A stretch of 64,000 nucleotides of DNA, taken from the NCBI RefSeq assembly GCF_026930045.1, contig NC_072740.1, positions 29,684,384 through 29,748,383 on the forward strand, written 5' to 3'. Below are positions 1-60,950 of the stretch, piece after piece (the first letter of the stretch is position 1; the number at the start of each line of letters is the position of its first letter). The notes under the pieces are model-generated. The model was not told the DNA's origin, searched no databases, and saw nothing but the letters and a program-made list of their open reading frames with translations. The DNA is from Uloborus diversus (lineage: Eukaryota). The translations under genes were made by a program, and so were the position numbers.

Positions 1-226
1 TTAACCCTAAACTCCAGTAGATAGCGTTCATTGTTTTCGTTTCTTCATTCCTCTGATATGACACAGTCTTACCAGTAAAACTGTTCAAGTTACCGGATCG
101 AGTTCAGCTTTGTCACAATAAAGCCTTTCCTTGCATGTTAAACATTACCAAAACATATCATGCCGTGGTGCGAATTCATTGTTGAAACACGCGGGTTACT
201 CGATCATCGGCATTATTTGTATGAGG

Positions 227-5720: not shown

Positions 5721-6264
5721 TCCCAAAACGACCACATAAACTCATAAGCTCTGCACTGCTAGATTCCTCGTTCGGAGTATATAAAAACTTCCTAAAGAAG
5801 TGCTCCTGTACGATCCATAGTTTACGAGAAAAAATACGAAAAACTAAGTATGACGTCACTGCCGGTGCTAGGAAAAACACTTGATTGAACATATCGACAG
5901 CAGTTAGTATACGCGCATTACGTATAACAACAAATACGTGTAATGACGTTTTAAACATTATCGTCTGGAAATATATGCAAATACTGTTGTAGCAGTTAGT
6001 ATACTTACATTACATATAACAACAAATACGTGTAATGACGTTTTAAGCAATATCGTCTGGAAAGATATTCAAATACTGTTGTTGATATGTCCACTAAAGT
6101 GTTTTTCCTTGCACCGGGAGAGACGTTATACTTAGTTTTTCGTATTTTTCTTATAAACTATCAGTTTACAAGAACAGGAACGCGCGCTTCTTAGGGCAAT
6201 TTTTATATACTCCCGACGAGGAATCTAGCTGTGCAGAGTTTATGCGGTCGTTTTGAAACACCCT
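5718..6264. mobile_element. Foldback or MITE-like element: roughly 185-bp inverted arms flanking two 92-bp tandem units
   Basis: Left arm 5718-5900 'gtgtcccaaaacgaccacataaactc...catatcgacagcag' is the reverse complement of the right arm 6084-6264 '...gtttatgcggtcgttttgaaacaccc' at about 80% identity. The centre holds two direct 92-bp units (5901-5992, 5993-6084: 'cagttagtatac...caaatactgttgt'). The element lies between (TA)30 on the left and 'tatatatat' on the right. Confidence 0.75.
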
Positions 6265-11645: not shown

Positions 11646-12256
11646 TACAGTGTAAAAAAATTCCGAAACGTTACTGAGTATTTCCGTGTAACGTTTCGGG
11701 ATTTCTGTGGTTTTTATGCACTTCCTGGAAAAGTCAAGTATCCTTGACAAAAAGTTTCCTGGATTGCTACAGATCTAGCGAATGCAGACTTCTAGCTATT
11801 ATAAAAAACATTTTTAGCTCCCAGTTTAAAGATTAAATGAGCGTTTTTATAAAGTGTATCCGCTTTAGTTCAAGTGCGGCCCGTCCAGACTGATAAGGCG
11901 TCCAAAGGGTGCAAATCTGTCTATGGACTACGTAGCTTTGCAAGAATTGCAGGCGAGAAAAATTCTTGATACTTACTTGCAGTTCTGTCTTAGCTTTGGC
12001 CATGAATGAAATACTGCTTTTGGAACTTTCCCCGAAACGCAGTAAGATGTTTATTCTAAGATTCCAGAGATACGACTGGCTTTAAACGGGAAGAGTTCTG
12101 AATATTTTAGGGAGCTTCCAGGATAATTTCAGTAAGGTTACTGAATTTCAGCGGAAAACGTTCCTGGTTTTTCTAAGATATGTTACTGGAAGAAATTGGG
12201 CACATCAGATGCCCATTATTTTCCAGGAACGTTTCTGAATCGTTTTTACAGTGTAG
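11646..12256 (+). mobile_element. MITE-like non-autonomous TIR element, copy 1 (about 610 bp)
   Basis: Colinear with 18548-19199. For example, 'tacagtgtaaaaaaattccgaaacgttactgagtatttccgtg...ttcggg' matches 'tacactgtaaaaaaatctgtaaggttactggttatttccgtgg...ttcggg', and '...ggaaaacgttcctggttttt...attattttccaggaacgtttct...tttttacagtgtag' is shared. The termini 'TACAsTGTAAAAA' / 'TTTTTACAGTGTA' are inverted. Confidence 0.75.
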
Positions 12257-18547: not shown

Positions 18548-19199
18548 TTTTTTAAAATACACTGTAAAAAAATCTGTAAGGTTACTGGTTATTTCCGTGG
18601 AACGCTTCGGGATTTCACACGTTTTCACCTATTTCCCCGTAAAATCGACTATCTTTGAGACAAAGTTTCCTGAATTGCTACAAGTTAGACGAATATAGAC
18701 TTGTCACTGTTGAGAAAAACATTTTTAGCTGACAATTTAAAGATTGAATGAGCGTGTTTATTAAGTGTGTCGGCTTAAAGTTTGATTAAAACCTGCTCGA
18801 GTTGACTATGCCCCCCATGGGAGCGAATAAGTCACTGGATAGCCGCACCCTTGGAAGGCAGGAATTGCAGGCAAGGAATGTGTGTAGTTCTTGCTTGCCA
18901 ATTTGGCTTGCCTTTGCAGTGGTTTACTCTAATGCTTCGGGAGTTTTTTTGGTAAATCAGGAAGATTTTAATCCATTACATTAAACCTACTTGTTTTATT
19001 TAGGTTTCCGAGACATGACTGACTTAAGCACAGGAGGAGATTTCTCTATTCTTCAGAAAGTTTCGATTAAAATTTCAGAAAGGTTGCTGACTTTTAGCGG
19101 AAAACGTTCCTGGTTTTTGCAAGAAATGTTACTGGCAGAATTTGGGTATATCAGCTGCCTATTATTTTCCAGGAACGTTTCTAAAGCTTTTTTACAGTG
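18548..19199 (+). mobile_element. MITE-like non-autonomous TIR element, copy 2 (about 650 bp)
   Basis: Same family as 11646-12256 (see that entry) and in the same orientation. The flanks differ, so these are independent insertions; both copies are followed by 'tag'. Confidence 0.75.
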
Positions 19200-22100
19200 T
19201 AGAGGCATGTAACCGTTCTGTATCTTACTGGTGACATAACAGCAGTGCCAGATCTAGAAATTTTCTGAGGTGGGGCAAAACCTTAAAATGCCGTCTCCCC
19301 CAACACATCCATCCATCTTGTTTTAAATTTTTCTATCAAGTTGAATTTTCGTAATTTTAATTAACCTGTAAAGTTCGATATAGATTGACTACAAATTCAT
19401 TTTGTACTAGTAATGTCATTATGAGCAATTTTTTTGTTAAAACGGAGGCATACCGTAACACAAATTGCAATTAAAAACCTTCTCTGCTCCTCTTTTTTCC
19501 GATAACGAGTTCAGTGTTCGGATAAGAATGCTTTGGTTTTAATCTTCCAGTTTTCGCCACCTGCAGCTTTTTTGCTGCAAGGGAACAATGGATCTTCAAC
19601 TTACGGTCCGCGAACAGATTTTTCCCGGCCCGCGGGAAGCTTACAAACTGAGATTTTTTTCTTTCAATTGATAATTTTGAACATTTTGAAAGAAAACTAA
19701 GCCCAAAACCACTACTAGCCAGAGAAGAGCAGGGGGGGGGGGAGAACTGTCTCTTTCTACAGGAGGGTCTTCGACTTTCACTTTCCTCCTTCAAGCCATC
19801 AAAGATAGTTTAAAATTGCATTTGTGAGACTTTAATGTCGAAAAATTTCTGTAGGAGAGCCGTTTACCTGCCTTTTCTTCTTCATTTGACCAAAAATAGC
19901 CTTAATTGGGGACTTTGAGATTTTAATTTCTTGAAATTTCCGGGATGAGCCACGATCCCCTTCCGGAACGTCTCAATGAAAATATTTTAAAATTGCGGCT
20001 CCTTAAAAGAACAGCTCCAGAATTCTGACTATTTTTCTAACATCATAAAGGATGTCCAGAAATATGTTTTTAGAATATCATTCCAAAAAATTTTCCGAAT
20101 AGAGCATTTGACCCCTCCTCATCTCCTAAACATCACAAATTACCAAATTTTTCTCAACTTGGCAAATAATTTTCAGGACAATAATTTTCTGTAAAAAAAT
20201 CACATATGTGAATATATAGGCGGCTCCTGTAAGCTATCATTTTTTTTATCTTTTTTTATTTTTTGAAGTGAAGGACTATAAACCATGGGCCTGTAAAATC
20301 AGGACTGACACGCGACAAGACGTGCTCAATGCTAGTTTTGTCGCCAGTCCCTCCTCCTGTTACGCTAATTTTACTCTATGCGCACTACTTTAATTCCGAT
20401 AATGGTGAACATATGACCAAGCATTTCCATGAGTCAATAATTATCGGGAGTTGAGGAGCGAAGCGAGCAGTAGTTGCAGCCCCCTAGTTTCATAAAATAA
20501 AGCAAATGCCCTGTTTTGAATTTGCTCAATCCAAATCAACACTTTTAAAACTAATACGTCCTAAGTTACGGATGCTGGGCCGGTCATTTCGAATTTTTTC
20601 CCGGGGAGATTTTGCAGGGAAAAATAATTTTTACTTTCTATTCATGGTTACGGCTAGAAGGGGGAGGACGCGTCTTTTTATCTCAAAGTAATTAGCTAAC
20701 TTGGTTTTTTAAGGAACTGCGGTTAATCAAGATGTCCCGATAATGATCTGCAAAAATAACCCAATGCATAAAAGCAGAAAAAAGCTACTATCTTTCCTGT
20801 ACTAATTTCACTGGTAACGATTGATTAATGTATAAAGGAGCCTATGAAAACCTGCACACAGACCCACGATTCCCTACAACGTTCTTTGTTACACCACCGA
20901 GCATTTTTCATTTCAGAACAAATATGAGAGATTAGAATAAATAAAATAACTTCTACATTACATTTTTATGACTAAGTTTTCACTTTTATTTTGTAATTTA
21001 CCTCGTATCCAGAGCAAATAAGAAAAAAAGTAAACGTTAGATACTGCACACTTTTATAATCTTTTCTTATAGAAATCAATGCTAGCGAAAATATCTTTAA
21101 TAGCGTTTTTGAAGTTTTTACTTCTTCCTGAAAAATATTGAAATTAGCTTCCTTTTTTTTTGTCCAATTTGGAGATGAAACTATATTTCTCCTTTCTGCA
21201 CCCATGACGGAGAGCAATATGTTTATTTGCTGGATTTTGTAAATGCCTCTAGCAACATTTACAAGCTCATCCTCTCCCTGTTTCTAAGCAAAGGGTGCTT
21301 CAGAAAATTTGTGAAGAATGAACTTTTGTATGGTTTTAAGCATGAAATAATTTCAACCCCAAGCGAATATGTATGTATTTTTATTTTACCTTGACATCGT
21401 AAAATGTGCCACCCCTAAAATATGTCGCCATTAGGTAGTAGCACGGTGTGTACACAAAAAGCCAGTTGATCAACGAGGAAACAATCAATAATTAATATAA
21501 TTTTATTTAATTTTACTAAGGTCGAATTTATTTAAGTGGCTAGTACACGTGTTCAGGTTCAGTCCTATCAGAAGTGCTTACTTATCTCCCTTTGTAACAC
21601 CTAAAAACGCCTGTGTAAAGAGTCGCTTGCTGCTCGTCGCCCCGTTTTGCCGACTTCTTTTGTAAAATATGCATCTGTTTTTGAAAATAAATGACTCTAT
21701 AAGTCAATTTCAATTGTCAGCAAAATAAACGAGAAAGCACGAAACTCTTTTGCATTACTTTCTTTTTTTTCCCCAGTTTCAAATTGTTAATATTTAATAC
21801 TTACAGTACTTTCCAGAATTTCTTAGAATAAGCAATGTTTTTCTGCCGGAAGAACCACTCGAATTTGCCACCTCCTGAAGCTGCCGCCCGAGGCAAGAAT
21901 CTCGGATTGACCCCTTCCCCCGCTCCCATAGATCCGGCTGTGTATAATAGTAAGTTGAAACGAAACATTTAAATGAAGATTGGCTAACCATTGGCTAATT
22001 TGAGGCAGTTTATTTTTAACTCAAAATTAAGAACTGCAAATCATTTTATTTTTGCTATAAATAATTTATTAAGATGTAATTTTTTCATTTGGGTTCAAAA

Positions 22101-25100
22101 TTCTGCTATTTTTGTTATACAATTAAAGTGATTTTTGTTAGAAGAGCTGAAAACGTGGCTGCCGTATGGCATAAATGTTTATTTTTTTGCTTTAGATGTG
22201 TATTTATATATTTTTTAAAAATATTTGTTAAAATTTTTTGCAGGGAGAAATAATTTTTGCAATTGAGTTCTAAAATTTTTTTTTCTATGCTATTTCTCAA
22301 GAATATTATAAAGTCGCTTGAATTCAACGTATTAGACTCGAAAAAATTCATTAATAGTTGAAATAAAATGACCAGCTGTTGGAGAAAAAGTACTAAATAG
22401 AAATTTTTATCGAACCAATAGTTTTCTTTTCTTTTTTCTTTTTTGCGTTCAAAAGACACAGTTTACTTTAAAAAGAAAAGTTCTAAAAGTTCGAAATAAA
22501 TTACACCCTTAGTCTGTTGAGAGAGATGATGCTAATGTGCTGTTAGAAAATCGATGTTGGTCTTCGGGAAAGTAGGCTCAATTAGTTCTTGACGGAGCAT
22601 TTTGTTTCATTGGAGCTGCTAGAACTCATAAGAAGATCAAGTGTCCGTGACTAGTGAAATAAAATTGGTGATACATTTGAGGAGTGTTTTTTCATGAAAG
22701 ATATTTCCAGTCTTTTAAAAACATGCGAATTGGAAAAAGGCATGCTATTACGTATGGAATGTTAAGCAAGAATGGAAGAGAGATTAAATCTACATTTACT
22801 TCCGGAGTAAATTTCGATTAACATTTAGGCGTGGCCAATATTATGTACGAAATAAGGAATTGTTCGTTTAGATTAACTATGAATAAGCTTTGGGGAATGA
22901 AGATAACGAAAGATGAAATGTACATATTATTCATTTGAAAGCTTTTAATAAGTACACACTTCTGGATTTCTATCTCAGAATCATCAAATGGCGTAATCGA
23001 AGATATCTCATTGCTAAGTAAGTTTCAGAAAAGTTTTGCATCTAGAAGCAAATGATAATTTGCCTCAATTTACCGAGCGCTTGGGTTTTTATTGGTTTAT
23101 TTAAAAACTCTAGTTGCCTTTATGAGTAGTAAAGACCAAAATTGCAGGAAGTAGTCAAGTTTAACTTTGACTTTCAACCAACTTTGATTGTGTTTCTTAC
23201 GCTGCTTGATTTCTTTATTATTTCTAGTTTCTGCATGCGTTGGAGATGTTAGATATCTTTAGGACTTACAGAAAACACTTTGTAGTAACTAAAATTTAGT
23301 TGCAATCACACAATCAATTTCAAATAAGTTTGAAGAGTGTAAGTTTATTTTTGCTTTTTTCACTCTAATGTGCAGAGCTTTGATCACTTATATAATAATA
23401 CTTTGATTAGAGAAGTTGGCAAATTATACTCGCTACAATATCTATTGGAACAGGAACAACGGTTCTTAAATAGTTACAGCAGTCCCTAAAATTTTCAATA
23501 AGAATAAAGTCAGCAGTTCCTCTTATTTCTATCTGAATGCGGACAAGAGTCCCTAAAAACGCACAGATCCGCAACGCAAGGCTGCACAGTTCCTAAACAA
23601 CACAACTGTCCATAAAAATATCGATTACAATAAGAAAAGAAACTCCTGAAAATCCCAATTGGAAATGGGCATGTTATTGCAAGGTGAGGGGAGACAACTT
23701 GCGAAATCTTTCAGTTGTCGATGCTTGAGAATTTTGTCCTTATTCTATCGATTTTTAGGAACTATTGTTAACAAAATAACATCTCATCGGAGCAAGAAGT
23801 CACTGAAAACTTTGATTTAGTCGTAAACATTAGATTATTTTTATACGTTTTTTCAGCTTAATAAGATACTTTATATCACCTGCAAATGTTTCGTTTTCTA
23901 CGTCATGATTACATAATTAAAAATATACCATTGAATGCCATTTAATATAGCAACATAAATAGTTTTAGCAATATAAATGTAATCTTCCGGATGTGTATAT
24001 TTATATGGTGCATTCTGCAGTGCGATATACTTTTTTTTGTTTTATTAAATTGCTAAAAATTGTTGCTGATAAATCTTTCTCACTTTTAATCAGAGAATAC
24101 TTCCTTGAAAACTTAGCATCAGCAGAAGGGACATCACTTTTTTCAATCTTACTAGTAATTTACACTCTCCCTATATAAGTTTGTCTATCTTGTTCAAGTT
24201 TTCAATCGTTAGTAAAACACTTTTTATTCATCTGATCAAGTTTAAATACATTTTTTAAAAACTTGCAGTGGATGACAAAACAATATGGTTATACAATTTT
24301 TTGAAATATTAATTTAAAAATTAAATTAATTTTCTATTTTGCCTCTTAATATTGTGATTCTGTCATATGTATATACATATCTTTATTAATTGTAATTATT
24401 TAATAAAAAGTAACAAAATAAAAATATTTTTTGTTGACTTAAGTAGGAATTGACTTTTTATATTACTTGTTTGTACTTACTGCTCTGAGACAAATCATTT
24501 CAAATCTTTGACACAGCGTTGAAAAAGAACAATGTGTATGAAGTCATTAAGACTCACCAGTAGTATAAACTGAATAACTGCAGCAACTTAATTCACCTTT
24601 TGACTGTACAAGTCATAATTCCGTTTTATGAGAGTGAGAATCCACCCTCATCACGTGTTAGATTCATGACGCTGGAGCTGAAATACAATCCTCTTTGTTC
24701 TGCAATATAAACATACTCAAAATTTCCTTGCAATTCTCCCTCCAACTAACAGGATATTTATGCTCTCTTACCATAAAGTAAGTGTGATACACTGTTGTAA
24801 CCCTTGTCTATAATATCTCGGCGACAAATGTGAAGATGAATCCAAAGATTTACGACTATAGCGTGATTAAATTTCTCGCTACATCTTCAATGGTAATGCT
24901 TTAAAGAAATAATTCATAACACATTTTAATTCCATTAGTTATTCGAACAACATTGAAAACATTTCAAATGCATGAAATGCATTTTATTTCTTAATTTTTT
25001 ATGGAAAAATGTAAAAGGAAAAAAAAAACTTTTTGAAAACTAAACAAAACATTGCGAACTTTCTTATGAGTAACATTTCCGAAATCCTTTTCATTACTCA

Positions 25101-25960: not shown

Positions 25961-26974
25961 ATACAGTCAACTCTTGATAACTCGAAGTCCTAAGGGACCG
26001 GCTAAAACCTTCAAATAATCGGCAGTTCGAGTTGTCGAAAGCTACTTATCCAGCCTCCTAAAGATTTTTTTTCTTTTTTTTAGGAATAGTGCATAGTAGA
26101 TAGATTATAACGCTGATAGTTTCGATAAAACTAAATATTAGTAATTCATAAAATTATCTTTGCGGAGCGTGACAAATAATAACTTCGTTATCATTGCTGT
26201 TTATGAAACCAGTTCTTAAAGCAGTTTTAACTACTTAAAGCCATAAGCGAAGTTTCTTTTCTCCTGAATTCAGTTCACATTCTTTTAAAATGTCTTTTGC
26301 CCTAAAAGCACGATTATTTGAACTATCCAGAAAATAAAGAATACCTTTTTCATTTTTTTAATAAAATTTTAAATCTTTCAAAAATTAGCCAGCAATGAAA
26401 TTTTAGATTGTCAGCCACGGCAAAAAGTAGCCCGATCGGCTACTTTTCACGCTGTCTTGCAGGAATGCGCATTAAGGAGCACTGTAGTAAATTAATAATC
26501 CCACTCATACAAACTGATGAGAAAAACAATCTTATTTTGGCTACATTTTTATGCATAAATGAAAACGAAACTTTTGTAAAAACTTCGACTTAAAAGGAGT
26601 AAATTCGAGATAAAGATACAACTTTGAATTGAAAAAACTAAGTTATTTTGGGACCGAATGAAAACTTCGAGATAAAGGAATCATCGAGTTATAAGGCTTC
26701 GAGTTATGGAGAATCGACTGTATTAAGAGATCGATCACGAAATGAAACAATACCACGAAATCTGAAATGAAACAATACCATAAAATCCGATACAGACAAG
26801 TAACTTGACAGCTCACTTGCCAACTACAACTGTTACAGAAGCTTTGAACACTTAAAAAATAGTACTAAAGTTTCAAAAAACAATAGGCATTACTAAAAAA
26901 CCATTATACTTTTTTTATGCTCGAAAATAATTTGCAGGAAATATATTTGTGCTGTAGATAAAATAGTAAATGGG

Positions 26975-27014
26975 CCATTCCACGGAAAACAGTAATTTTG
27001 TCCCGCACGTGACG
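26975..27014 (+). repeat. Left arm of a 40-bp inverted-repeat pair flanking the mariner insertion; contains the GTCCCGCACGTGACG motif
   Basis: 'ccattccacggaaaacagtaattttgtcccgcacgtgacg' is near-perfectly inverted against 28700-28740. Confidence 0.7.
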
Positions 27015-27021
27015 CTTCATA

Positions 27022-28569
27022 TACGAGGCTTGTCCGTAAAACAAGTTCCACCGGCTGCCGCTAGGATCGTTTCTATGCGCGGCCAGGCAACAGAGGCAGG
27101 TTGTTTGGTTCCCCCACTCCAGGGCTGTCCAACTAAAAAGAGCCCACGGGCCAGAACTCCGGTCACTGATCACCTGGCGGGCCGCAGTTTGAAAAAGTTA
27201 AAACAGTAACCTTTTACTTCTTATACAATAAAAATTAGTAGTTGAATCAATTATTATAAAACAAAAGGATTACAAAACAGTTTCATTATTGCCAGCAGAA
27301 GGTCTATCAATGAACTGTCGGAGAGAGAACTCCTGTGACGATTCTTGTTAAAGTTCATCACCGAAAAAGCACTTTCGCATAAATATGTGCTCCCGAAATC
27401 AACAAAGGTCGTAGAGTCAGTGAGGGGGTAATTTTTTTAACCAATTGCAGGCAGGATTTGCTTATCTGAAATATTTCTCTCTTCCCTCCCTGTCTCCCCC
27501 CACCAAAGCGAGGCAATACTATTTCTAGGAATTCGTTTGAACACCAGCTTGCGGGGTGTGACTGCTTGATATTGACCTGTAGATGTCCTGTACCTTTTTC
27601 TCCCAGTACAATGAAAGGAGTAAAAGAGCGATCAAGAGGAAATTTCGAGAACCCTGGCTTGACCAAGAATGGTAGTCACGGATGCTTCATGATACCATAC
27701 AATGTCGAAATAAGAAATATGCTGAATAAGAAGTTGGCGGGCCGCACAATATGTGTTGGCGGGCCGTCAGTTGGACAGCCCTGCCCCACTCAAATCCCTC
27801 ACCAATCCAGCGTCGCTGCGACGTTTAGTCTTGGCTCAGCAGCCGTTAGCAATGGAGCTTCTTCTTGCGTCTCCCGCCAGCTGCGAGTAGCGGTCTGTTA
27901 TTCGTTTTCTGGCCGCTAAGAAGAAATCGGCGAAGGAAATTCACGAAGAACTTTGTCAAGTGTATGGAGAAGAGTGTATGAGCTCCGGGATGGTGCGCAG
28001 ATGGGTCAGGGGCTTTAAAAATGGCCGAACAGACGTCCACGACGAAGCCCGTGCAGGGCGGCCATCGGTTTCCGACGAAACAATTGCCAAAGTCGGAGCT
28101 GCAATGCTTGAAGATCGACGAATTGCAGTTCGGGAGCTGTGCGAAAAGATTCCGGAGGTCAGCAAAACCACAATTGACAAGATTTTGACTGAACATTTAG
28201 GCACAGCTCTCATCGAAAGATTTGGATGGGAAATGGTGTCTCACCCACCCTACAGTCCAGACTTAGCACCAAGTGACTTCCATCTCTTCCCCGAGTTGAA
28301 GAAAAACCTTGGCGGAACCCAATTCCAGACAGATGAAGAGGTACAAAACGCGGTTGTTCGTTTTCTACACGGACAGACGGCACAGTTCTATGACTCTGGT
28401 TTGAAGAAGTGGGTTCCTCAAATGCAAAAGTGCATAGAACGCAACTGCGATTATGTAGAAAAATAAAAGAAAGACTGAACTTTCCGAAAATGTACTTTTC
28501 TTTGCAATTAAACCAGTTTTTTTTATGTGAAAAAAATTCGTGGAACTTATTTTACGGACACGCCTCGTA
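27022..28569 (+). mobile_element. Internally deleted mariner-family element with about 35-bp TIRs and a TA target-site duplication
   Basis: The 5' TIR 'tacgaggcttgtccgtaaaacaagttccac' (27022) is inverted against the 3' TIR 'gtggaacttattttacggacacgcctcgta' (28540-28569). TA lies at 27020-21 and at 28570-71. Encodes the mariner transposase remnant listed below. Confidence 0.8.
27852..28466 (+). pseudogene. Mariner transposase pseudogene: N-terminal HTH region fused in frame to the C-terminal tail, with the catalytic DDD core deleted
   Basis: The translation 'MELLLASPASCE*RSVIRFLAAKKKSAKEIHEELCQVYGEECMSSGMVRRWVRGFKNGRTDVHDEARAGRPS...TIDKILTEHLG' is a mariner HTH/paired-like N-terminus. It joins directly to 'WEMVSHPPYSPDLAPSDFHLFPELKKNLGG...FYDSGLKKWVPQMQKCIERNCDYVEK', the mariner C-terminus. 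There is an in-frame stop at about 27888, and about 200 aa of catalytic domain are missing. Confidence 0.85.
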
Positions 28570-28699
28570 TATCATAAAAAATAATACCTTAAAAGGATGA
28601 TGAACAAAATTTTGTTGCTTAAGAAACCACAAACACATGTGTGACTTCTTCAGCAAAAACTTTCTTCAAAAATTATTTCTTTTTTATGAAATATATTAA

Positions 28700-28740
28700 C
28701 CGTCACGTGCGGGAGAAAATGACCGTTTTCAATGGAATGG
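28700..28740 (-). repeat. Right arm of the inverted-repeat pair flanking the mariner insertion
   Basis: 'ccgtcacgtgcgggagaaaatgaccgttttcaatggaatgg' is the reverse complement of 26975-27014 with 3 mismatches. Confidence 0.7.
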
Positions 28741-28915
28741 ACATATACATATTTTTTTTTCAATGGTTTAAATAATTATTTCTAAACTAATGAGATGTTT
28801 CCTTTACGTTGGAACCATAGCTTTCAAAATCTGCAGTTTGTTTCGTCATTGCTGTATTAATAGAGCAAAAATATTAGCTTATTCATAAGCAAGTTACCAG
28901 AGGTTGTCTTTGGAT

Positions 28916-42170: not shown

Positions 42171-42386
42171 CCGTGTGCAGGTAAACGGCAGTATCTGCAG
42201 AAACGTGTAGTGGATTCAATACTAACAATAGGAAAATGTTGGAATTAGGCGCCGTTTTTGCGCCTCTTTTTCAGCGGAAACCAAATAAGCGGGCTTGTAC
42301 AATAAAGATAATATACAATAGATGACGAAAATGCAAAAAAATGAAAAATGAAAAATTCGCAGTTTCTGCCCTTTACCTGCACACGG
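42171..42386. mobile_element. MITE-like element of about 215 bp with roughly 30-bp TIRs
   Basis: 'ccgtgtgcaggtaaacggcag...agaaac' (42171) is inverted against 'gtttctgccctttacctgcacacgg' (42362-42386). 'aatactc' occurs immediately 5' (42164-42170) and 3 nt after the 3' end (42390-42396), a possible imperfect TSD. Confidence 0.5.
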
Positions 42387-43201
42387 CAAAATACTCAAAT
42401 GTTATCAAATATTCCATCCTAACTCTAGAAAAGAATTAAAAACTTCATTAGTGAACCTTTCATTGGTTAAATGAATTATGATAAATTTATATGATTACAT
42501 ATATAAAGATATATTTAATATGAGTTATTCGCGTGAATAGCGGTTACATAATAATAGGATACTTACACTTCTTTTTAAAGTTAGTTGCGGTTTCTAATAG
42601 AAATGTGTATTGGTTCCTCTCCGTTTGAAGACTGAATGCATCCACCCCTAGAGGCCGATAGTCATTCTTTCATAACGTAATTCTATCGAGGGATAGCCAT
42701 TTCCACTTCAGAGTTTTAACACCCACTTAGCCTTCTAGGCTTTCGCGATGCAAAATTGCACTTGAAGCTTAATGTAGCCAAGATCATTTAAACCAAATAC
42801 ATATGCAAGGAATCTTGAACATTTCACAGAATATCATAGGGTCATTCCATAGAAATGTCAACCTCAACCACAGAAATGTTTTTTCCACAAAGCCTTAATT
42901 GTGACCTATCATTTCATTCAGCATACTTTCTAGTACATAAATCCAGTAACAGTTTTCAAAAATTTCATTCGGTGTTTCTCTTCAGGCTCTAAACGTGCGA
43001 GGTTGTAGAAAAGGCTTAGCATGTGCAAAAAAACATGCGTCTACGTTTTCTTGTGTAATGCAAAATGTTTTGCAAATTTTTAAAAGAACTATGTATATTC
43101 TAAATGATTAGATGTTGGCCCAATAAAATTCAGGGTTATTTTTTCATACATTATAAGATAAGTATTTTAATTAGTTTGGTTATTTCACTGAAAATATTTA
43201 C

Positions 43202-44801
43202 GTTACGTTAGTCACGAAAATGTACTATTTTCTGCTTAAAAACTAAACCAGATGATTGAACCAAACAGCACTTTTTATTTTCTTACATCTATGTCATATC
43301 TACTTAAAAAGTGCAAAATATTTATTTCAGTATCAGTAGATATAAAATAATTAGTGTGACTAACGTAACATTTGAGCTGTGACTAACGTAACCGTTTGCA
43401 TGTCACTAACGTAACATTTTAAAAATGACTGCTAATATTTAAAACTTATTTAATTTAATGTACATTTTCATGAACAATTTTGAACATGCAGGCATTCTAT
43501 ATTGATTAAAAATATAAAGGGTGAAAAATACCAGTAAAATTACATTGTATAGACCTTCTGTTTACTTCGAAAAATACTTTTTTAAAAGTAGATACTTCCA
43601 ATTTAAAGAATTGTTAGAAAAGAAAAAAGGTGAGTAAAGCAAATTGAGTGCTCTGCTAAAGGTGCATTAAACACAAGAATCCAAGCTTAAGAATTAAGTT
43701 AATAGAAATATAGTTTTAACAAAGGAGAACGTCTCTATTTTTTAGAAAATACATGTCTACCTATTATTAAAATGAAATAATGGATGCTCGTTGGAAAACA
43801 TTAGAAGATGTTACATGATACAGTGACAATAAGCGCTGCTGCCATATATTTCAGAAAATGCAAGACTGATCATTTAGAAATTCAAACAGTTGCGGTGATA
43901 TCTAGAACTAAAATGCATTCTGCAAAAACGTTCAAATATTTTTTTTCAATATTACATTTTAATTCAAAAGCATGCACAACACTAATCGTTCGATGAATCA
44001 GTAAACCTTAAAAAATAATATGCCATTGAAAAGTACTACGGAGTTTCGACGATACCTAGTATATGGGCAGAATACTAGAATTCGGTGAAACTGTCAATTT
44101 GCATAAAGTTTACTTTTTAAAAGAGATATTTAGGACTTAATTAGCCCAAGAATGATGTTATTCAGTTTGTAAAAGCAGTTTTTTTTTATTTGTTTATTTT
44201 TTTTTCGCACATTCAAATTGAATTAATTGAACTGAATCCTTCCATTCAATTTCTTACCCTATTGTAGAAAAAAAAGTAAAGAAAGAGCCATAATGCAACA
44301 CAAAGAAAGTTCCCATAAAGTGTAAAAGTAGAATAAGAGCAAAAAATTAATTATAAAAAGTTTTTTATATGCATTCATTGTTTGCTTTTCGATGGTTACG
44401 TTAGTCACGTTACGTTAGTCACACACAGTTTTTCGTAAAAGTACCATTAAGGGCCAAAAAAGATTCATCTGTAAAAAATCTGTAGTACATTTTTAAAAAT
44501 AGATTGTTTACCTCTTACAAATATATCGGCCAATTTTAAATATCTGCGTAAGTTTCAGAAAAATTTGCCTCGTAACATAAGCATTGTTTCTCAGGGTTGC
44601 AAAAATGTTACGTTAGTCACGATGCCTTTTTTGGTGGAAAAACACCTGCCAGCGCTTATTTTGCTTCAAATTCTTGGTAGAAATGAAAAATAGTCACCTT
44701 GTACATTTTAAATCTGCACATTAAACCAAAACACATTCATTTTTACTCCCGGTGTAAATCAAAAGAGTTTGAAAATCAGCTGCGAATGTTACGTTAGTCA
44801 C
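43202..44801. repeat. Cluster of eight or more copies of the 14-17-mer (AAT)GTTACGTTAGTCAC in both orientations
   Basis: Plus-strand copies at 43202, 44396 plus 44409 (a tandem pair), 44606 and 44788. Minus-strand copies (GTGACTAACGTAAC) at 43366, 43389 and 43412. Most are preceded by 'aatgtt'. The intervening sequences are mostly unrelated to one another. Confidence 0.8.
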
Positions 44802-44859
44802 TATGGAATGACCCCATACGACATGAAGGCTTACGATTTTCTGCATCTCGAAACTCTAT

Positions 44860-44935
44860 CGACTGGCGCCGGATTTGTACCCGAGAGTTTGGGCGCAGGA
44901 GGTCGGTACTTAACCACTACGCCACCCTGCTGGTA
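44860..44935 (-). pseudogene. Degenerate tRNA-like sequence, possibly a SINE head or tRNA pseudogene
   Basis: The minus strand reads 'GGTGGCGTAGTGGTTAAGTAC...CTCGGGTACAAATCCGGCGCC', with a D-loop-like TAGTGGTTA and a T-loop-like GGTACAAATCC. The stems are poorly paired. It lies directly downstream, on the minus strand, of the GTGACTAACGTAACATT motif. Confidence 0.35.
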
Positions 44936-46175
44936 TTTTTTAACTATACCATTCGTAATGAATAAAATATTATATCTACTATTTAATGAAATACTATAAT
45001 ACAATTTAATCACGTGTACAACCGCAAAATCATAAAATATCTTTATTTCTCACGTAATCATCTTCAGTTAAAGAATGAAATACACTATTAAAAAATTGGT
45101 ATGGGTTATTAGAGGATGCGGCCGCAGAGGTCAGGAAAGGACATTTTACTTAAGCTATACAGTTCACCCTCTCATCAAGCATATTCAGGGCAAATTTGAA
45201 GTTATTCTGAACAGAGGTTCTTTTCATACTGTATTTTGAACGAGGAATTACAATTACCCTGCATAATGTTGCGACTGAAGTTCTTAACAAGTTAGACGCG
45301 TTACTTAGTTATCGTAAACAACAGACCGTAAGAATGGTTTGAAAAATCGTCTAAAACGGGGGAAAAATCACTCAACTTTTAAAAGAAAACTCTTTTACGG
45401 ACATTAGAACTCACCCATTAAAGATTGGATACAGGGTTATAAATATGGGCATTTATATTTTTTGAACTGTAATTCACATCAAAATGTCAAAGTTATGGAC
45501 CGTATAACTGTTCAAACTGTTGAGTAGCTATGTAAATAGATATCGACACAATCCAATGCGGGTTGCAAGGTACATAGACAGATAAAATAGAGATTGACAC
45601 TAGTAGTACGAGATCCGGCTGCAGAATCATTGCAGTCATAGAGTCAAAAACTAATTTTTATATTACATTATGAAAGGGGCAAAATGTTTTGGCTGGATTG
45701 CCTAGAAAGAAGTGCTCGCAAGTATTTTTTATCAAATTAATATTGTTTGACATTTTGGGGTAAAAATGACGCATTTATTATTAAAATAAACTATACTCTA
45801 CTTCAAAGAAATATACTTACACTGTTAAATTTTTTTTTTAAAATCAAATGTTACTGTAAAATTTTAGTTTCCTCGGTAGGACACAGCAACCAATTGGAGC
45901 TGGGATCGCTTATTTCTCCGGTATAAATTACCGTAAAAATCAGCAATACTTAAGTCCGCCATTTTACAGTAACAATTACCAGAAAATCTTCCTGAATTTT
46001 TAACAGTGTAAAAACTTGAAAAGCTATGGTTGCCGTTGCGCAACTGACCGCTACCTATTCGAAGCCACATGTAAACGTGTACTATTAGTGCACATCTATG
46101 CACTCATAAAATGTAGTCATCATTTACGTATGAAATCAAAGCTAATTTTTTTCTGAACGAGATAAACTAAGGTAT

Positions 46176-46608
46176 GCAAAAAAATTTTGAAAAAAAATAG
46201 AACCGACTTCAAAATTGCTCTAAAAAGTGAAAAATAATTTTATTCTTTAAACACCATCGATAATACTTTTAAACATAATTTTTGAAGTTGGCGCAAAAAC
46301 GATCGATAAAATCATTCACAGCCATAACTCAACTACAAGTATAAATTTAACCACGTCCAGTTTCTTCACGCATTGATGACAGCATATTTGAGTAACGATA
46401 TAAATGTTTCGTTCCTAAGTTCGGATGATTTTTTGATAAAAATGTGAACGAAGCATGGTTACAATGGATTTTACTTTTTGCTTTTGCGCCAACTTCAAAA
46501 ATTATGTTTAAAAGTATTATCGATGGTGTTTAAAGAATAAAATTATTTTTCACTTTTTAGAGCAATTTTGAAGTCGGTTCTATTTTTTTTCAAAATTTTT
46601 TTTATTTC
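46176..46608. repeat. Near-perfect palindrome: 125-bp inverted arms (100% identical by eye) around a 185-bp unique spacer
   Basis: The left arm 46177-46299 'aaaaaaattttgaaaaaaaatagaaccgacttcaaaattgctctaaaaagtgaaaaataattttattctttaaacaccatcgataatacttttaaacataatttttgaagttggcgcaaaa' is the exact reverse complement of 46485-46607. Confidence 0.9.
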
Positions 46609-47013: not shown

Positions 47014-47085
47014 CCTAGTCGGGATTTGAACCCTGGTTGCTCGTGTGGGAGACGAGAATTCTACCACTGAGCCACCGTTATCCTC
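47014..47085 (-). pseudogene. tRNA-Gly(CCC)-derived pseudogene or SINE head
   Basis: The minus strand reads 'GTGGCTCAGTGGTAGAATTCTCGTCTCCCACACGAGCAACCAGGGTTCAAATCCCGAC'. The A box, D arm and anticodon arm (stem CTCGT/ACGAG, loop CTCCCAC, anticodon CCC) are intact and close to animal tRNA-Gly-CCC. The T stem (CCAGG/CCCGA) and acceptor stem no longer pair, with changes that look like CpG-to-CpA decay. Confidence 0.55.
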
Positions 47086-48635: not shown

Positions 48636-49401
48636 AAATAAAGAAATCTATATCTATCGAGTCGAATGTATAACTGTATGAATGCAATATAACGTAATTC
48701 CGCCTCCCTGTCCGATTTGAACAAGATTTCTGGCAAAATTCAACCACCCTCTCGACGAAAATGTTAGCAAGGTCTCATTTAAAAAGCTTGAACTAGTTCT
48801 TTATTTATCTACGTTTATAACATTCTTTTGATAATACGAAATTGAATGAAATGTCTAATTTTTTCCGTTTTCAAATTATCATTTCTAACCATCATTTAAA
48901 AGCTTGAACTAACTATTAACTCTTTGATGGACGGAGACTTCCTTTGCTGCAATCATTAAAAGAAAAAAAAAAAAAAAAAAAAGCGTACTGCCGTTTTTTT
49001 TTATCGTTATTATTATTTTTTTGCAACGAATTGGTAAAATAAGCTATCTTAGGATCCGTTATGGTATTTTTTTTTCTTTCTAATGGGGCTTAGTTAGATG
49101 CTTTAGCCTTTTCGGACCTAGTGCGAACCACCGATATGGCATCGAGTCTTTCAAATGCTACCATTAAGGCACGGATGTGACTGGCACAAGAAATTTTGGT
49201 GCCGAGTTTCCACCAGATAGAGACACTTGAGCTCTCTTCGATGCGAAACTGCGCTAGGGGTTTAATTTTGTCAAGCCAAACGAATAGCTGAGAGATCTTT
49301 TACCTGTCGATTAATAGAATGTATAGTGAATGAAATTAAGCATCTATGTATTTTTATTTTAACAACATTTTGGAAAATGCAAATGATTGCTTTTTATAAA
49401 T

Positions 49402-49450
<49 letters not shown>

Positions 49451-50816
49451 GTTATGAATGATTTGAACATTATTGGCGATTTTCCCCTGATGTTTTCAAT
49501 TTGATGCTTCATTTAAAAGACCAAGAGGAGGCATCGCACCCTCCTATCTCACCACCAAACACGAGTTCAGTTTATTCTGCCAATACAAAAAAACTTCTGT
49601 ACAAATCAGTCTTTTTCAAATTAAAAATTAAAACAACTACAGCGAAAATGGCAATATACTCTACTCTATTACGAATTATCGCGTCAATATTTGATTATAA
49701 CCTGGTTACTTTACTGTCTTTATTAGCAGTAAGCAAGTGTTCGACTCAAAAATTTCATAATTTGGAGTCAAACGTCAAATTTTGATCATTAAGGTAATCT
49801 TCGTCCCGTTTGCGATTGCGATAATACAGTAGCATTAAATTAGATACATTTTCAACAAGATGTAATAAGCATAAAGCTAGCCAATTTTTGGAATCAAAAC
49901 TTATAGGTTTCTTATAGCCTCAGTTTGTAAATTTTTTGCTCCTCAGTCATCTGATGTTCAAAAGTCTAAAGTCAATCGTTTGTAAAAACTCTTAGAATGA
50001 TTGTGGCTAAAAATCCAGTAATGATTTAAATCTACCTTTCAAAATTCATGTAACAATAATAACACTTCTGATTCTTTCATTTTCAAGTTGGTATAACTGC
50101 CATTTTAGGAGCGATTTTGTAATCATCCTGTATTCTCGAAAGCATATCATATTTTATAACGTAGGTATTGACTTTTTTTCTTTCTTTTATGTGATGTTAG
50201 TAAAAGATATTCTATTGCAAGAAATAGCAAATAATTTTAACTTGAAGAAATTAAGAGTTAAAAAAAATAATTCTAATATAGACGTGAAATACACAAGAAA
50301 ATTTACCTCGCATTCACCTTTTCTTAATTATACGCGCAGTAAATAGCAGAAACTTTCACCTAGTAATTTATAGTTAAATGCACATGTCCGTTTTTTGTTC
50401 CGTTTAATGCTACCTTCGTAATTTACTAATGATGGATGCATAGATGCTTATTAAATAATTCCTCAGTAAAAAGGCGGTAATACTAATCAGAAAATTTATT
50501 CCAATGAAACAAATAGAAATTTGCTTTTCTTGAAAAACGGAACAACATCGAAGAAAATTTTTTTCTTTAGTTAAAAATGACTAGCCGCTCTTCTCTTGGG
50601 ACCATAGACTCACATTTCAGTAAGATTTAAAAGTACGAATTTCAAATAATTACTTTTAAATTACTTGTGTTAATATGACCGAACTTGCAATTTCATAAAC
50701 TGATCACAGTAAAATATTCAAGTAATTTTCAATTTCATTCTTCGCTTCATAAAATTTTGATACAGCAAAAGTAATTTCGTTGCATCAGCTTCAAATTTAT
50801 TTATTCACTTATGTTC

Positions 50817-50847
<31 letters not shown>

Positions 50848-51795
50848 TTTCAGGATTACAGTTTAAAAGTTGTAAGCTTCCGGGGAGATAAGTAATCTAT
50901 TATTGTTAAAAATAAACTAAAAGTTTAAATAAGATTATTAATCAAAATATAAAATGAATCTGAAATGAATCATCCCAAAAATATAAAGAGCAAAAATAAA
51001 TTAATTAATAATTAATGTTTATTTTTCCTCATCCTCAAACACACGTAATGTGTAGAATTTCTTTTTCGTTGCTGTCTGAACTTAGTTTTAAAATGGGAAA
51101 ACATATTAACACATAAATTGCTCGTATTTTTAAGAAAACTTTAAAAGGGTTTTCTTACTTTACTGTTCACCACAAAGGTATTTATTTATCTTACAACTTA
51201 CCTAGTTTGTGTACACTTAATTTTCTTTTGATTACAATTTTGTTCAAGATATGTTTCCTATAAGCGCGTGGTAGAAAAAAACTGTGTGTTAAAACAGAAA
51301 ATAGTAGGAATTTCAATTACTGATTCACTAGGGATGCACCTCACTCTGGCTGTCCTTCGTGCAGCATGTGTCAAGGAAATCAAGTCCAAACGGAAAAAAA
51401 GTCAAAACAAAAAGAAGAAAGAAAGAAAACCACACCAATGAGACTGCGGAATGTTTGTTTTCAATTACTTTGCCGATAGCAATCTGGTGGACTGAGGGAA
51501 AGGGGCCGAATTTCAAGGTCACAACTTCGGACGGAGTACGCGACACAGCAAGAGACAGGCGGCAACTGGGAACCCGCAGTTATTGCACGAGGTTCTCGTG
51601 TTCTGAATTGACTCGGACGCGGGAAAATATCCGATTAATGGGAATATTTAAGGGGAAAATACCAGGTTTCATAAAATTTCTCTCTTTGAAAAATTTTTGT
51701 TGACGTGAGGTGCAACAACTGAGAAAAAGCAGACAGTGGTCTTTCGGAAAGGGGGGGTCCGGACCCCATGGACCCCTCCCTTTGGCTACGTCTTT
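48636..51795 (+). repeat. Copy 2 of the dispersed 2.5-kb repeat, expanded to 3.2 kb by a copy-specific insertion
   Basis: See the entry for copy 1. Colinear blocks are 48636-49375 vs 227-1055, 50140-51320 vs 1095-2230, and 51320-51795 vs 2230-2752. The G-run is G8 here vs G14 in copy 1. An A31 tract at 50815 replaces T10G10 in copy 1. Confidence 0.85.
49375..50140 (-). mobile_element. Roughly 765-bp insertion present only in repeat copy 2, ending in a 45-nt poly-A on the minus strand (T45 at 49403-49447); a retroposon-like insertion
   Basis: It is absent from the orthologous position in copy 1 (1055-1095). The long homopolymer at one end suggests a poly-A-tailed retroposed element inserted in minus orientation. 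There is no tRNA-like head and no recognisable ORF product (ORF 49501-49785 has no detectable similarity). Confidence 0.45.
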
Positions 51796-56307: not shown

Positions 56308-57745
56308 CAGTAGTTACATACACCCCTGTTTGTGAAAATTGCAACACCACGAAGGACTTACGTGAGTGAGCTGAAAATTGCAGGAATGTAAGGTAGGGCG
56401 TAATATGCAAATGATTAGAATTGCAGACCGGTAGCGCATGCGTATGCTGAGCAGCACCCTCTGAACGGTGGATCGAACCGGATATAAATAGGCGGCTGTA
56501 GCGAGCCGTGTATGATTATTGGCGGTTATATGCTAGAGTACACATTAACTGAATCTGTACTATGCCTCTTCGACGAAAGAAAGCGAAATTTGAGCAAATT
56601 TCGGAGTTTGAACGGTGCATAATCGTTGGCCTTCGTGAAGCTGGATTGTCTTATCGTGCAGTAGCCGCTCGTGTGCAGCGTAAAAGCAGCACAATCATGC
56701 GTGTTTGGAAGTAGAGGACGGACGAGGGTCGGACAGCTCGGAAATCCGGGAGTGGACCCCGAAATGTGACGTCAGCTCGCGATGACAAACACCTGGTGCG
56801 TATGGCGCTGACGGACTGCACAGCTTCTTCTAGACAATTGGCAGCACAGTGGTCAACAGCTACAGGTGTTTCATCGTGTGCTTCATCAATTCGGAGACGT
56901 CTGCTGCAGCGTGGGCTGCGCGCAAGGATTCCTTTATACAGGATTCCTCGTGCGCAAAACCGTCGCCGCCTGCGGATACAATAGGCCAATGTGCATAGGA
57001 GCTGGCGTGCTGATTGGCAGCAGGTCGTCTTTTCTAACGAATCCCGCTTCAATTTGTGGCACCGTGATGGCCGAATTCGTGTCAGGCGCTATGCCGGTGA
57101 ACGGCACATTCCGGGTGCAATATCGAACGCCGGTGGACGAACACCCGGAGTTATGGTCTGTGGTGCCATAGAATATCATGGACGATCACAATTGCTATGA
57201 ATTGTGGGCAGTTTGAACAGTACCTGATGCATAAACGAAGTTTTACAGCCACAAGCTATTCCTTTCCTGCAAGGATTGCCAGGGGCTGTATTCCAGCAGG
57301 ATAATGCCCGTCCACATGTCGCCAGGACTGTAAAATCCGACCTTGATTCGCAGCAGGTACAGCTTTCTTTCTTGGCCTGCATATTCCCCGGATATGTCAC
57401 CGATTGAACATGTGTGGGATTTCGCTGGGCGGCGTCTCGCTCGTGATCCTCGTTCTGTTGCTTCGACAGACGAACTTTGGTTGGGCATACAAACAATATG
57501 GAATGCTCTTCTGCAGGCAGATATTCAAACTTTGTTTCACTCCATGCCGAGTCGTGTAGCAGCTCTTATTGTGGCGCGTGGTGGCCACACAAAATACTTA
57601 TTTCTATCTCTTTTAATTGTTTGTTTGGTTTGAAAATGTAATCATTTATTTGTACCATTACCACTCAACTGTGTATTAAATTTCATTCAGCTATGATGCT
57701 TCCTTTATGGTGTTGCAATTTTCACAAACAGGAGTGTAGTAATTG
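56308..57745 (+). mobile_element. Tc1-like DNA transposon of about 1.44 kb with roughly 40-bp TIRs
   Basis: The 5' TIR 'cagtagttacatacacccctgtttgtgaaaattgcaacacc' (56308-56348) follows a TA. The 3' TIR 'ggtgttgcaattttcacaaacaggagtgtagtaattg' (57709-57745) is its inverted counterpart, with the inner 24 nt identical. A TATA-like 'atataaatagg' lies upstream of the ORF. Confidence 0.9.
56562..57603 (+). pseudogene. Tc1-like (DD34E) transposase with three in-frame stops and one frameshift
   Basis: 'MPLRRKKAKFEQISEFERCIIVGLREAGLSYRAVAARVQRKSSTIMRVWK*' matches the Tc1 HTH N-terminus. '...WQQVVFSNESRFNL...GRIRVRR...' and 'FQQDNARPHVAR' are DDE-core motifs. 'LSWPAYSPDMSPIEHVWD...LWLGIQTIW...MPSRVAALIVARGGHTKY' in frame +1 is the Tc1 C-terminus. 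There are stops at about 56712, 56982 and 57198, and a frameshift near 57350. Confidence 0.9.
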
Positions 57746-59424: not shown

Positions 59425-60950
59425 AATAAAATAACCGTTCAGCTGGTCCAGACAGAATTAAAGCAGAGCTTTTGAAGTTCAAGGACCAAGATCAGCTACG
59501 TGCTATCCATGAAATCATTTGTAGAGCATGGCAATTGGAAGTATTGCCCAATGAGTGGGACAATGGATCTATTTGCCTTATTTTTAAGAAGGGGGACAAA
59601 TTTGAATGTGCCAACTATAGAGGATTCACTCTACTTAATACTGCTTTTAAAATTTTATCCTACGTGCTTTGCACTAGGCTGCTACCACACGTGGAGAAAG
59701 TTATTTTATCATATCAATGTGGTTTTCAAAGAGGAAAATCCACTTCCAACCAAATTCATGCCCTAAGACAAATCATTGAGAAAACAAAAGAATTTAATAT
59801 CAGTACATCCCACCTTTTTATCGATTACAAGGCTGCATATGACAGCATTAGAAGAGACAGGCTCTTCGCTGCCATGGAAGAGCTCGGTATCCCATTAAAG
59901 CTTGTTAACCTTACGAGAGCAACTCTTAGAAGAGTCAAATGCCAGGTGAAGATGCAGAACGAATACTCCGAGCCCTTCCTTCTACACCGACAGAGGGTTG
60001 AGGCAAGGGGATTCTCTTGCATGTATCCTTTTCAACCTTGCCCTTGAGAAAGTCATTAGATCTTCTGGTATCAACACTCGAGGCACTATTTTTCAATGAA
60101 CAGTACAGATTCTTGCATATGCCGATGACATCGACATAATTGGAAGATCCAAAAGAGCTGTCACAGATGCTTTCATCGCTATTGAGGCTGCTTCTAAAGA
60201 AATGGGCCTTAGCATTAATGCTGAAAAAACCAAATATATGGAAATAAACCATAAATCATTTGATTCTACCCCATTCTTTGTTAATGGCTACTCATTCGAA
60301 TCCGTTGAGGAGTTTAAATATCTTGGAAGTGTCATCACTAGAAACAATGATATTAGCGTTGAAGTCAATTGCCGCCTAACTATGGCAAACAAATGCTACT
60401 TTGGTTTGAAAAGCCAATTAAAAAGTAAACTTCTTTGCCAAAGTACAAAAATAAACATATACAAGACCCTTTTAAGACCAGTCCTAACTTATGGAAGTGA
60501 GTGTTGGGCTTTAACTAAAGCAGAAGAAGAGAAATTGATGGTTTTTGAAAGGAAAATTTCAAGAAGAATTTTTGGTGCTGTCCAGGAAAACAACAGATGG
60601 CGCACTCTCTATAATTTTGAGATATATAAAAAATTCTATAAACAGCCAGATATTATCCACTTTATTAAAGCCAATCGCATCAGATGGCTGGGGCACCTCT
60701 TTAGACTAGGTAGTAGGTTCCCAATCCATAAAGTCACCTTCACAATTCCAGATGGTGCGCGCGAGGGACCGCCCACCAACCAGATGGCTCGACTGTGCCG
60801 AAAAAGACTCAAAAACTGTTGACCTCAGTGGATGGAGGAAATCTGTTTCTGACAGGACGGGATGGAGGAAACTGATTGAGACGGTCTTGGCCTGCCCTAG
60901 GCTGTAGTGCCGAAAAAGAAGAAAGAAGAATTTTCAATAAAAGTTTTGCA
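59425..60950 (+). mobile_element. 5'-truncated non-LTR (LINE) retrotransposon: reverse transcriptase plus C-terminal tail
   Basis: The translation contains 'GPDRIKAELLKFKDQ...', 'FQRGKSTSNQIHALRQIIEK', 'LFIDYKAAYDSI', a YADD box ('LAYADDIDII'), 'GLSINAEKTKYMEI', and the conserved LINE tail 'GSECWALTKAEEEKLMVFERKISRRIFG...IRWLGHL...DRTGWRKLIETV'. The frame is broken near 60047 and 60100. No endonuclease or ORF1 lies upstream. Confidence 0.85.

Follow-up and report, generated by a model that had tools for sequence, protein, structure and literature searches.

The En/Spm (CACTA) element of maize has terminal inverted repeats (TIRs) of 13 bp and carries, near both of its ends, many copies of a 12-bp motif in both orientations, to which the TnpA protein binds. 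Ac/Ds and other hAT elements also contain subterminal repeats, which are bound by transposase (AAACGG in the case of Ac), and have target-site duplications (TSDs) of 8 bp; in PIF/Harbinger elements the subterminal sites are bound by a Myb-like accessory protein. In Tc1/mariner elements of the inverted-repeat/direct-repeat (IR-DR) type, e.g. Sleeping Beauty, the direct repeats resemble the termini and are found at the ends of inverted repeats of about 200 bp, with TA as the TSD. Finally, the Su(Hw) array of Drosophila gypsy consists of about 12 degenerate sites with a common orientation, in some 350 bp of the 5' untranslated region of this long terminal repeat (LTR) element. In the present study, a stretch of 64,000 nucleotides of Uloborus diversus was analysed (NC_072740.1, positions 29,684,384 to 29,748,383; hereafter the window), in which eight copies of a 14-nt motif, GTTACGTTAGTCAC, are clustered within 1.6 kb. 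Our preferred, albeit tentative, reading is that the segment from position 42839 to 44814 (numbered from the first letter of the window) is a non-autonomous cut-and-paste DNA transposon with TIRs and with En/Spm-like subterminal binding-site repeats, which fits none of the superfamily signatures tested.

The original prediction, made from the letters of this DNA, described at least eight copies of an identical 14-nt core, and the number holds: eight copies of GTTACGTTAGTCAC are present in 43202–44801, although only seven of them are exact and one carries a mismatch. No other copy with up to two mismatches occurs in the rest of the 64 kb; at this threshold eight sites are observed where 0.32 are expected, and none of 100 dinucleotide shuffles reaches eight. 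A Hamming scan of the whole window reveals an all-or-nothing distribution, with seven exact sites, one site with one mismatch and none with exactly two, while the sole match with three mismatches, at position 53615, is at background level. The 17-mer in which the motif had originally been described recovers the identical eight sites at up to three mismatches (0.27 expected). Its exact form occurs only three times, however, and the 5' extension AAT, said to be shared by most copies, is found in four of the eight. Three copies (copies 2–4) are indeed on the opposite strand, but the positions first given for them (43366, 43389 and 43412) were 10 nt too high; the true starts are 43356, 43379 and 43402. 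The tandem doublet was confirmed by Tandem Repeats Finder (TRF) as an exact 14-bp repeat of two units at 44395–44422 (100%), and the same program identified a 23-bp array of 2.9 units at 43355–43419, comprising the three minus-strand copies. A possible decayed fourth unit in phase with this triplet can be discerned by eye at 43425–43438; it has retained only AGTCA and is not statistically separable from chance.

The conservation of the motif ends abruptly at its borders. Across the eight copies 111 of 112 positions agree with the consensus, whereas the 14 nt on either side, with the copies placed in register on the motif strand, have pairwise identities of 31–33%, which is the random level; that the surrounding sequence is mostly unrelated between copies, as had been noticed earlier, is thus borne out. 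Outside the 14-mer identity drops to random within about 4 nt, the sole exception being a 5' preference for (A)AAT. The 23-bp triplet shows the same pattern on a smaller scale: its motifs are alike at 13–14 of 14 positions, and its two internal spacers are each exactly 9 nt long, yet alike at only 3–5 of 9 positions. In the DNA between the copies neither periodic self-similarity, nor a decayed tandem background, nor enrichment of half-motifs could be detected, and global flank-to-flank comparisons of the copies were all non-significant. A weak in-register inverted similarity exists between 43416–43460 and 44345–44390 (score 17 versus 12.2 ± 1.7, a value reached by 3 of 300 shuffles); these segments adjoin the triplet and the doublet, and the similarity is treated here as a lead. 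A lattice of about 199 bp in the positions of the copies was considered as well and dropped, as no periodicity supports it. Since the observed/expected ratio of CpG is about 0.9 across the window, the retained CpG in the motif is uninformative on age.

As the motif is constant while flanks and spacers are random, the unit that has been kept is the 14-mer itself, and in places its spacing, and not a duplicated block. Such a pattern is unlike block duplication followed by neutral decay, and also unlike a set of 5'-truncated retroposon tails. It points to recognition sites of a sequence-specific DNA-binding protein, with the binding itself predicted from the sequence. An array of protein-binding sites, which the original prediction had mentioned as a further possibility, is compatible with the near-invariant motif, the random spacers and the two spacers of exactly 9 nt; protein binding to these sites would equally be the mechanism implied by a transposon.

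The limits of such a transposon were sought with a boundary scan for inverted repeats with one arm in 42300–43360 and the other in 44400–45400, in which flanking direct repeats were scored. The top candidate for a combination of TIR and TSD is the perfect 14-nt inverted repeat GGGTCATTCCATAG, which brackets all eight motif copies and is the only inverted repeat, apart from the motif itself, that stands out around the cluster. GGGTCATTCCATAG has just two exact copies in the window, inverted relative to each other. From the composition, chance would supply 0.018 perfect 14-nt inverted repeats in the grid that was scanned, or 1e-4 when a flanking repeat of 4 bp is required as well. When the same geometry was slid to 115 control positions, complex perfect inverted repeats of at least 14 nt were seen three times, twice at or inside an arm of another long inverted repeat; a TSD of at least 3 bp was not seen with any of them (0 of 115). 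The tetranucleotide CATA is found directly outside both arms, although the inverted repeat may instead extend into it, over two of its four bases (AT). The candidate element thus delimited is 1,976 bp long; its leftmost 580 bp contain four motif copies (orientation +,-,-,-), its rightmost 420 bp the other four (+,+,+,+). Its interior contains no open reading frame (ORF) above 62 residues and no Pfam match in six frames, and this lack of coding potential fits what is expected of a non-autonomous element.

What the locus presents is a motif cluster conserved against random flanks, with fixed 9-nt spacers, bracketed by an inverted repeat with CATA and devoid of coding capacity; that it is mobile and bound by a protein, as well as which protein and which superfamily are involved, is what we infer when reading it as a transposon. 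We propose that the eight GTTACGTTAGTCAC copies would serve as recognition sites for one sequence-specific DNA-binding protein, and that they would be carried in both subterminal regions of an element with perfect 14-bp TIRs, whose insertion probably generated the 4-bp TSD. By analogy with En/Spm, Ac and Harbinger, an autonomous relative located elsewhere may encode this protein, either a transposase or an accessory protein. The putative sites on the left are mostly on the minus strand and those on the right all on the plus strand, the last one touching the TIR, and close pairs have spacers of 0 or 9 nt; binding of the protein could bring the two ends of the element together for excision. The suggestion in the original prediction that the motif is a terminal or subterminal repeat of a DNA transposon is retained in its subterminal form, for a candidate much larger than the one of about 220 bp put forward at the time, which is discussed below. 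The surroundings are rich in transposons (mariner, reverse transcriptase of a long interspersed nuclear element (LINE), and inverted repeats of foldback type or resembling MITEs (miniature inverted-repeat transposable elements)), which we count in favour of this reading.

Table. Coordinates of the motif copies and of the putative structural parts of the candidate element (positions in the window)
Feature	Position	Strand	Remarks
CATA, left copy of putative 4-bp TSD	42835..42838		identical CATA outside both arms
Left TIR, GGGTCATTCCATAG	42839..42852	+	exact inverted partner at right
Motif copy 1	43202..43215	+	exact; 363 nt in from left end of candidate element
Motif copy 2	43356..43369	-	exact; unit of 23-bp phased triplet
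Motif copy 3	43379..43392	-	exact; unit of 23-bp phased triplet
Motif copy 4	43402..43415	-	one mismatch, GTTACGTTAGTGAC; unit of 23-bp phased triplet
Central core, 979 bp, motif-free and non-coding	43416..44394		no motif or half-motif enrichment, no Pfam match, short ORFs
Motif copies 5 and 6	44395..44422 (starts 44395, 44409)	+	exact head-to-tail doublet, no spacer
Motif copy 7	44607..44620	+	exact; AAT 5' extension present
Motif copy 8	44788..44801	+	exact; AAT 5' extension; last base is first base of right inverted repeat
Right TIR (CTATGGAATGACCC on + strand)	44801..44814	-	adjoins motif copy 8
CATA, right copy of putative 4-bp TSD	44815..44818		identical CATA outside both arms

The architecture of the candidate element shares several properties with En/Spm: the TIR is short (13 bp in En/Spm, 14 bp in the candidate), a motif of 12–14 bp recurs many times, in either orientation and partly as close pairs, in the few hundred bp next to each end, the spacers are not conserved, the ends are asymmetric, and there are non-autonomous derivatives without an ORF. 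In contrast to En/Spm, it lacks CACTA termini and has a putative TSD of 4 bp instead of 3 bp; its host is an animal, no TnpA-like or TnpD-like partner is known here, and the motif copies on the left begin only 363 nt in from the TIR. Membership of the CACTA/En-Spm superfamily was rejected: the subterminal motif arrays in direct and inverted orientation at both ends are present, but the termini read GGGTC...GACCC and not CACTA...TAGTG, and the 3-bp flanks are ATA and CAT. With Ac and other hAT elements the candidate has in common several short binding motifs in both subterminal regions, which in those elements are required in cis besides the short TIRs. The Ac motifs are degenerate hexamers, however, whereas the 14-mer is near invariant, and assignment to hAT was rejected because the 8-bp TSD is absent (8-bp flanks atatcata and catacgac), the longest flanking direct repeat being 4 bp.

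Among the remaining systems, PIF/Harbinger invites comparison through the sequence TAACG in the reverse complement of the motif, which recalls a Myb core. The TIR of about 14 bp starting with GG is a further likeness, as are the TSDs of 0–4 bp of the PHIS group (PMC10045372). The TWA duplication of 3 bp that is usual for PIF/Harbinger is missing (3-bp flanks ATA/CAT, 4-bp flanks CATA/CATA), and there is no transposase or Myb-like ORF here to compare. IR-DR elements also have several transposase-binding repeats per end, inverted between left and right, but the 14-mer bears no relation to the TIR, and TA is not found on both flanks; Tc1/mariner, including its IR-DR members, was rejected for lack of the TA duplication (left flank TA, right flank CA). 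The Su(Hw) array of gypsy resembles the cluster in having homotypic sites for one protein and AT-rich, unrelated spacers, and in being carried by a mobile element, putatively so in our case. It differs in that here eight near-identical sites are found in two opposed groups over 1.6 kb, and no LTRs are present. A duplicated TTAA target characterizes piggyBac and Kolobok, and piggyBac termini are 5'-CC...GG-3' (PMC10045372), whereas the flanks here are CATA and the termini GGG...CCC, so these superfamilies were rejected too. TSDs of 4 bp have been reported for Ginger1, of 3–4 bp for AcademX and of 0–4 bp for PHIS (PMC10045372), hence a 4-bp TSD is compatible with several superfamilies and does not discriminate between them.

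Several points weigh against a transposon with these ends. The chance estimate rests on a grid that was set once the cluster was known, and an alternative reading of the ends gives an inverted repeat of 17 nt with one mismatch and no TSD. As this possible longer repeat takes in part of the TSD, TIR and TSD are not independent evidence, and together they fit no superfamily signature tested. The ends are asymmetric, the nearest motif copy on the left being 363 nt from the TIR and in the 'wrong' (+) orientation, and the sequence beside the left TIR resembles the motif only weakly. A second copy of the element was not found in the 64-kb window, so that one copy is available for analysis. Both motif and TIR are also absent from 132 kb of spider DNA, which comprises seven loci of Trichonephila clavipes and Araneus ventricosus taken around mariner copies. 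Nor were they found in metagenome, viral and prokaryotic collections, which do not include the source genome. A literature search with the motif and its reverse complement returned only an unrelated paper matching one 12-mer. A search for two copies of the motif separated by 0–30 nt gave no match in viral contigs, metagenome contigs and prokaryotic genomes, a result with no bearing on the copy number in the source genome, and the 17-mer was encountered at 22 metagenome loci, with one copy each, which is chance level.

The rival that survives best, although we regard it as unlikely, is a cis-regulatory or architectural array of the host, either never mobile or long domesticated, in which the 14-mers would be homotypic high-affinity sites of an enhancer, silencer or boundary and the inverted repeat would be coincidental. 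The contrast between conserved motif and random spacers, together with the fixed 9-nt spacers, argues for protein binding whether the segment is mobile or not, and it also speaks for a host array that the cluster is unique in the 64 kb and that a second copy of the segment was found neither in the window nor in the 132 kb of spider DNA. The ACGT core and the TGAC/GTAAC-type half-sites of the motif presumably recall bZIP sites; similarly, CTAACGTAAC seems reminiscent of the PAR-bZIP palindrome GTTACGTAAC, and TGACTAA of AP-1/Yap-type sites. On the other hand, seven exact 14-mers are unusually uniform, given that in clusters of host sites degeneracy is the norm. Neither genes nor exons were detected in the vicinity, the surroundings of the cluster containing only short ORFs, and the ORFs of at least 90 residues in the window gave only transposon domains and no host-gene domains in Pfam. 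Moreover, a host array would require that the enclosing perfect 14-nt inverted repeat with CATA arose by chance, for which the estimate is about 0.02 or less.

It is improbable that the copies are the remnants or seeds of a minisatellite with 14- and 23-bp units, i.e. slippage arrays that were broken up, inverted and dispersed locally, without any binding function. The two short tandem arrays (14 bp in two units and 23 bp in 2.9 units) would suit this explanation, as would a slippage-like stutter of 5 nt, TTACGTTACG, at copy 1. Tandem duplication followed by neutral decay, however, cannot yield identical motifs separated by unrelated spacers. Decayed copies with two or three mismatches are lacking in and near the cluster, the intervening DNA has no periodic signal, and the intervals of 140–990 bp consist of unique sequence without a recognisable inserted repeat.

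The element of about 220 bp that the original prediction had delineated, a MITE extending from 43202 to 43425 with inverted copies of the motif as TIRs, is very improbable. Copy 1 (+) and copies 2–4 (-) are indeed inverted relative to each other and 140–186 nt apart, and the copies to the right would belong to further elements. No direct repeat is found flanking 43202 and 43415, however, where the sequences are ...atatttac and attttaaa..., and the sole mismatch of the cluster falls in the outer right arm. Two further copies lie inside the proposed element, so that three nested 'right ends' at 23-bp spacing would have to be explained, as would the four copies in the same orientation 1–1.4 kb away.

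One motif copy had been reported to abut a tRNA-like head of a short interspersed nuclear element (SINE) on the same strand. The segment in question, at 44860–44937, is separated from copy 8 (44788–44801) by 58 nt, and its internal promoter boxes are read on the minus strand. They consist of an exact A box, TGGCGTAGTGG, at 44914–44924 and a B-box-like site, GGTACAAATCC, at 44871–44881, which fits the loosened pattern GGTWCRANNCC and not the consensus GGTTCGANNCC. At 44860–44937 no tRNA was called by ARAGORN, nor by Rfam even at E≤10, and its folding z-score of -2.0 is marginally better than that of shuffled sequences. The segment 44802–44940 has no other copy in the window, and the ORF that runs across both copy 8 and the tRNA-like sequence yielded no homologue. 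Another pair of RNA polymerase III (Pol III) A and B boxes (TGGCTCAGTGG ... GGTTCAAATCC) is found at 47022–47074 on the minus strand; by eye it resembles a tRNA-Gly-derived SINE head, is not called by ARAGORN, and has a body unrelated to 44860–44937. It is hardly credible that a SINE or LINE family ending in the motif (AATGTTACGTTAGTCAC) left the copies behind as truncated tails of its 3' end: the Pol III A box and B-box-like site 58 nt from copy 8 would suit it, but such tails would share upstream homology whereas the flanks are random within about 4 nt on both sides, the other seven copies have nothing like 44802–44940 nearby, no tRNA is called there, the second A/B-box segment has a different body and no motif, and eight tail-only insertions in 1.6 kb with none in the other 62 kb are implausible.

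The window as a whole is AT-rich (about 33% GC), transposon-rich animal DNA. A mariner remnant of Mos1 type, with its ends at 27020–28571, terminal repeats of 32–33 nt and an HTH_32 domain, is 87–94% identical in protein and 92–96% in DNA to copies of Trichonephila clavipes. It carries an insertion of about 660 bp (27121–27784) and an internal deletion at 28202, and its ORF of 168 residues (27960–28466) fuses the helix-turn-helix part to the C-terminal catalytic part. On either side of the remnant lies one arm of a 71-nt inverted repeat (76%; 26953–27023 and 28692–28762), so that the mariner appears to have inserted into an element resembling a MITE. Each arm contains a segment, GKKCCATTCCAYKGAAAAC, similar to the candidate's GGGTCATTCCATAG termini (GGGCCATTCCACGG, at 26972, and GTCCATTCCATTG in the two arms); the likeness is at chance level by count, and that a GGGTCATTCCATAG-like segment is found in each arm of a separate inverted-repeat element hints that the termini are related. 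At 42171–42386, just upstream of the candidate, is a small element of MITE type, its 28-nt arms being 89% complementary, and at 46178–46602 a foldback or MITE-like element with 136-nt arms, 96% complementary and 153 nt apart.

Fragments of a LINE reverse transcriptase are found at 59472–60822 (+) in two ORFs, one with an RVT_1 domain, and their best relative is a Trichonephila clavipes 'transposon TX1' protein (53% identical). A dispersed repeat of about 2.4–3 kb, a transposon family of unassigned type, is present at 289–2679 and 48708–51728 in direct orientation with 75–87% identity, and a further pair of direct repeats, about 6.9 kb apart (11655–12256 and 18566–19202, 76–82% identity), could represent either LTRs or an element present twice. 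An element of 1,408 bp at 56325–57732, the most GC-rich part of the window, has perfect terminal inverted repeats of 25 nt (CCTGTTTGTGAAAATTGCAACACCA), and the ORFs inside it gave no Pfam match. At 5743–6244 an inverted-repeat element with arms of 61–75 nt (85–88% complementary) encloses a 92-bp tandem duplication (5899–6082) and adjoins a (TA)30 microsatellite. The 132 kb of spider DNA shares with the window only the mariner and one other repeat, at 24136–24472, which is 74–83% identical to a Trichonephila clavipes contig (3513–4018). Judged by these similarities, the host would probably be an arachnid-like arthropod of a species other than Trichonephila clavipes and Araneus ventricosus. Rfam and ARAGORN searches over the region gave nothing credible, the exact look-up of one ORF of the window found no match, and a scan for bacterial promoters and terminators, irrelevant for this DNA, was at chance level.

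Of the readings considered, a transposon that is by now defunct is the likeliest for 42839–44814, and it would be ordinary in an animal genome rich in repeats. It is rather doubtful, and would be of wider interest, that the 14-mer is the high-affinity site of an uncharacterised DNA-binding protein, belonging either to a new lineage of animal DNA transposons with an En/Spm-like subterminal architecture and unrelated termini (GGGTC...GACCC, with a 4-bp TSD), or to a host or domesticated array resembling a boundary or enhancer, in which selection has kept the sites exact and phased at 23 bp (two turns). If the transposon reading is correct, one unclassified non-autonomous DNA-transposon family would enter the repeat library of an arthropod genome whose annotation is poor, and the motif, with its preferred spacings of 14 and 23 bp, would be a clean candidate recognition sequence for tracing the transposase or accessory protein. 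This would help annotation and leave the understanding of such elements unchanged. Greater weight would attach to the cluster only if the array were single-copy and conserved between species, in which case it would represent an unusually uniform, spacing-constrained array of host binding sites.

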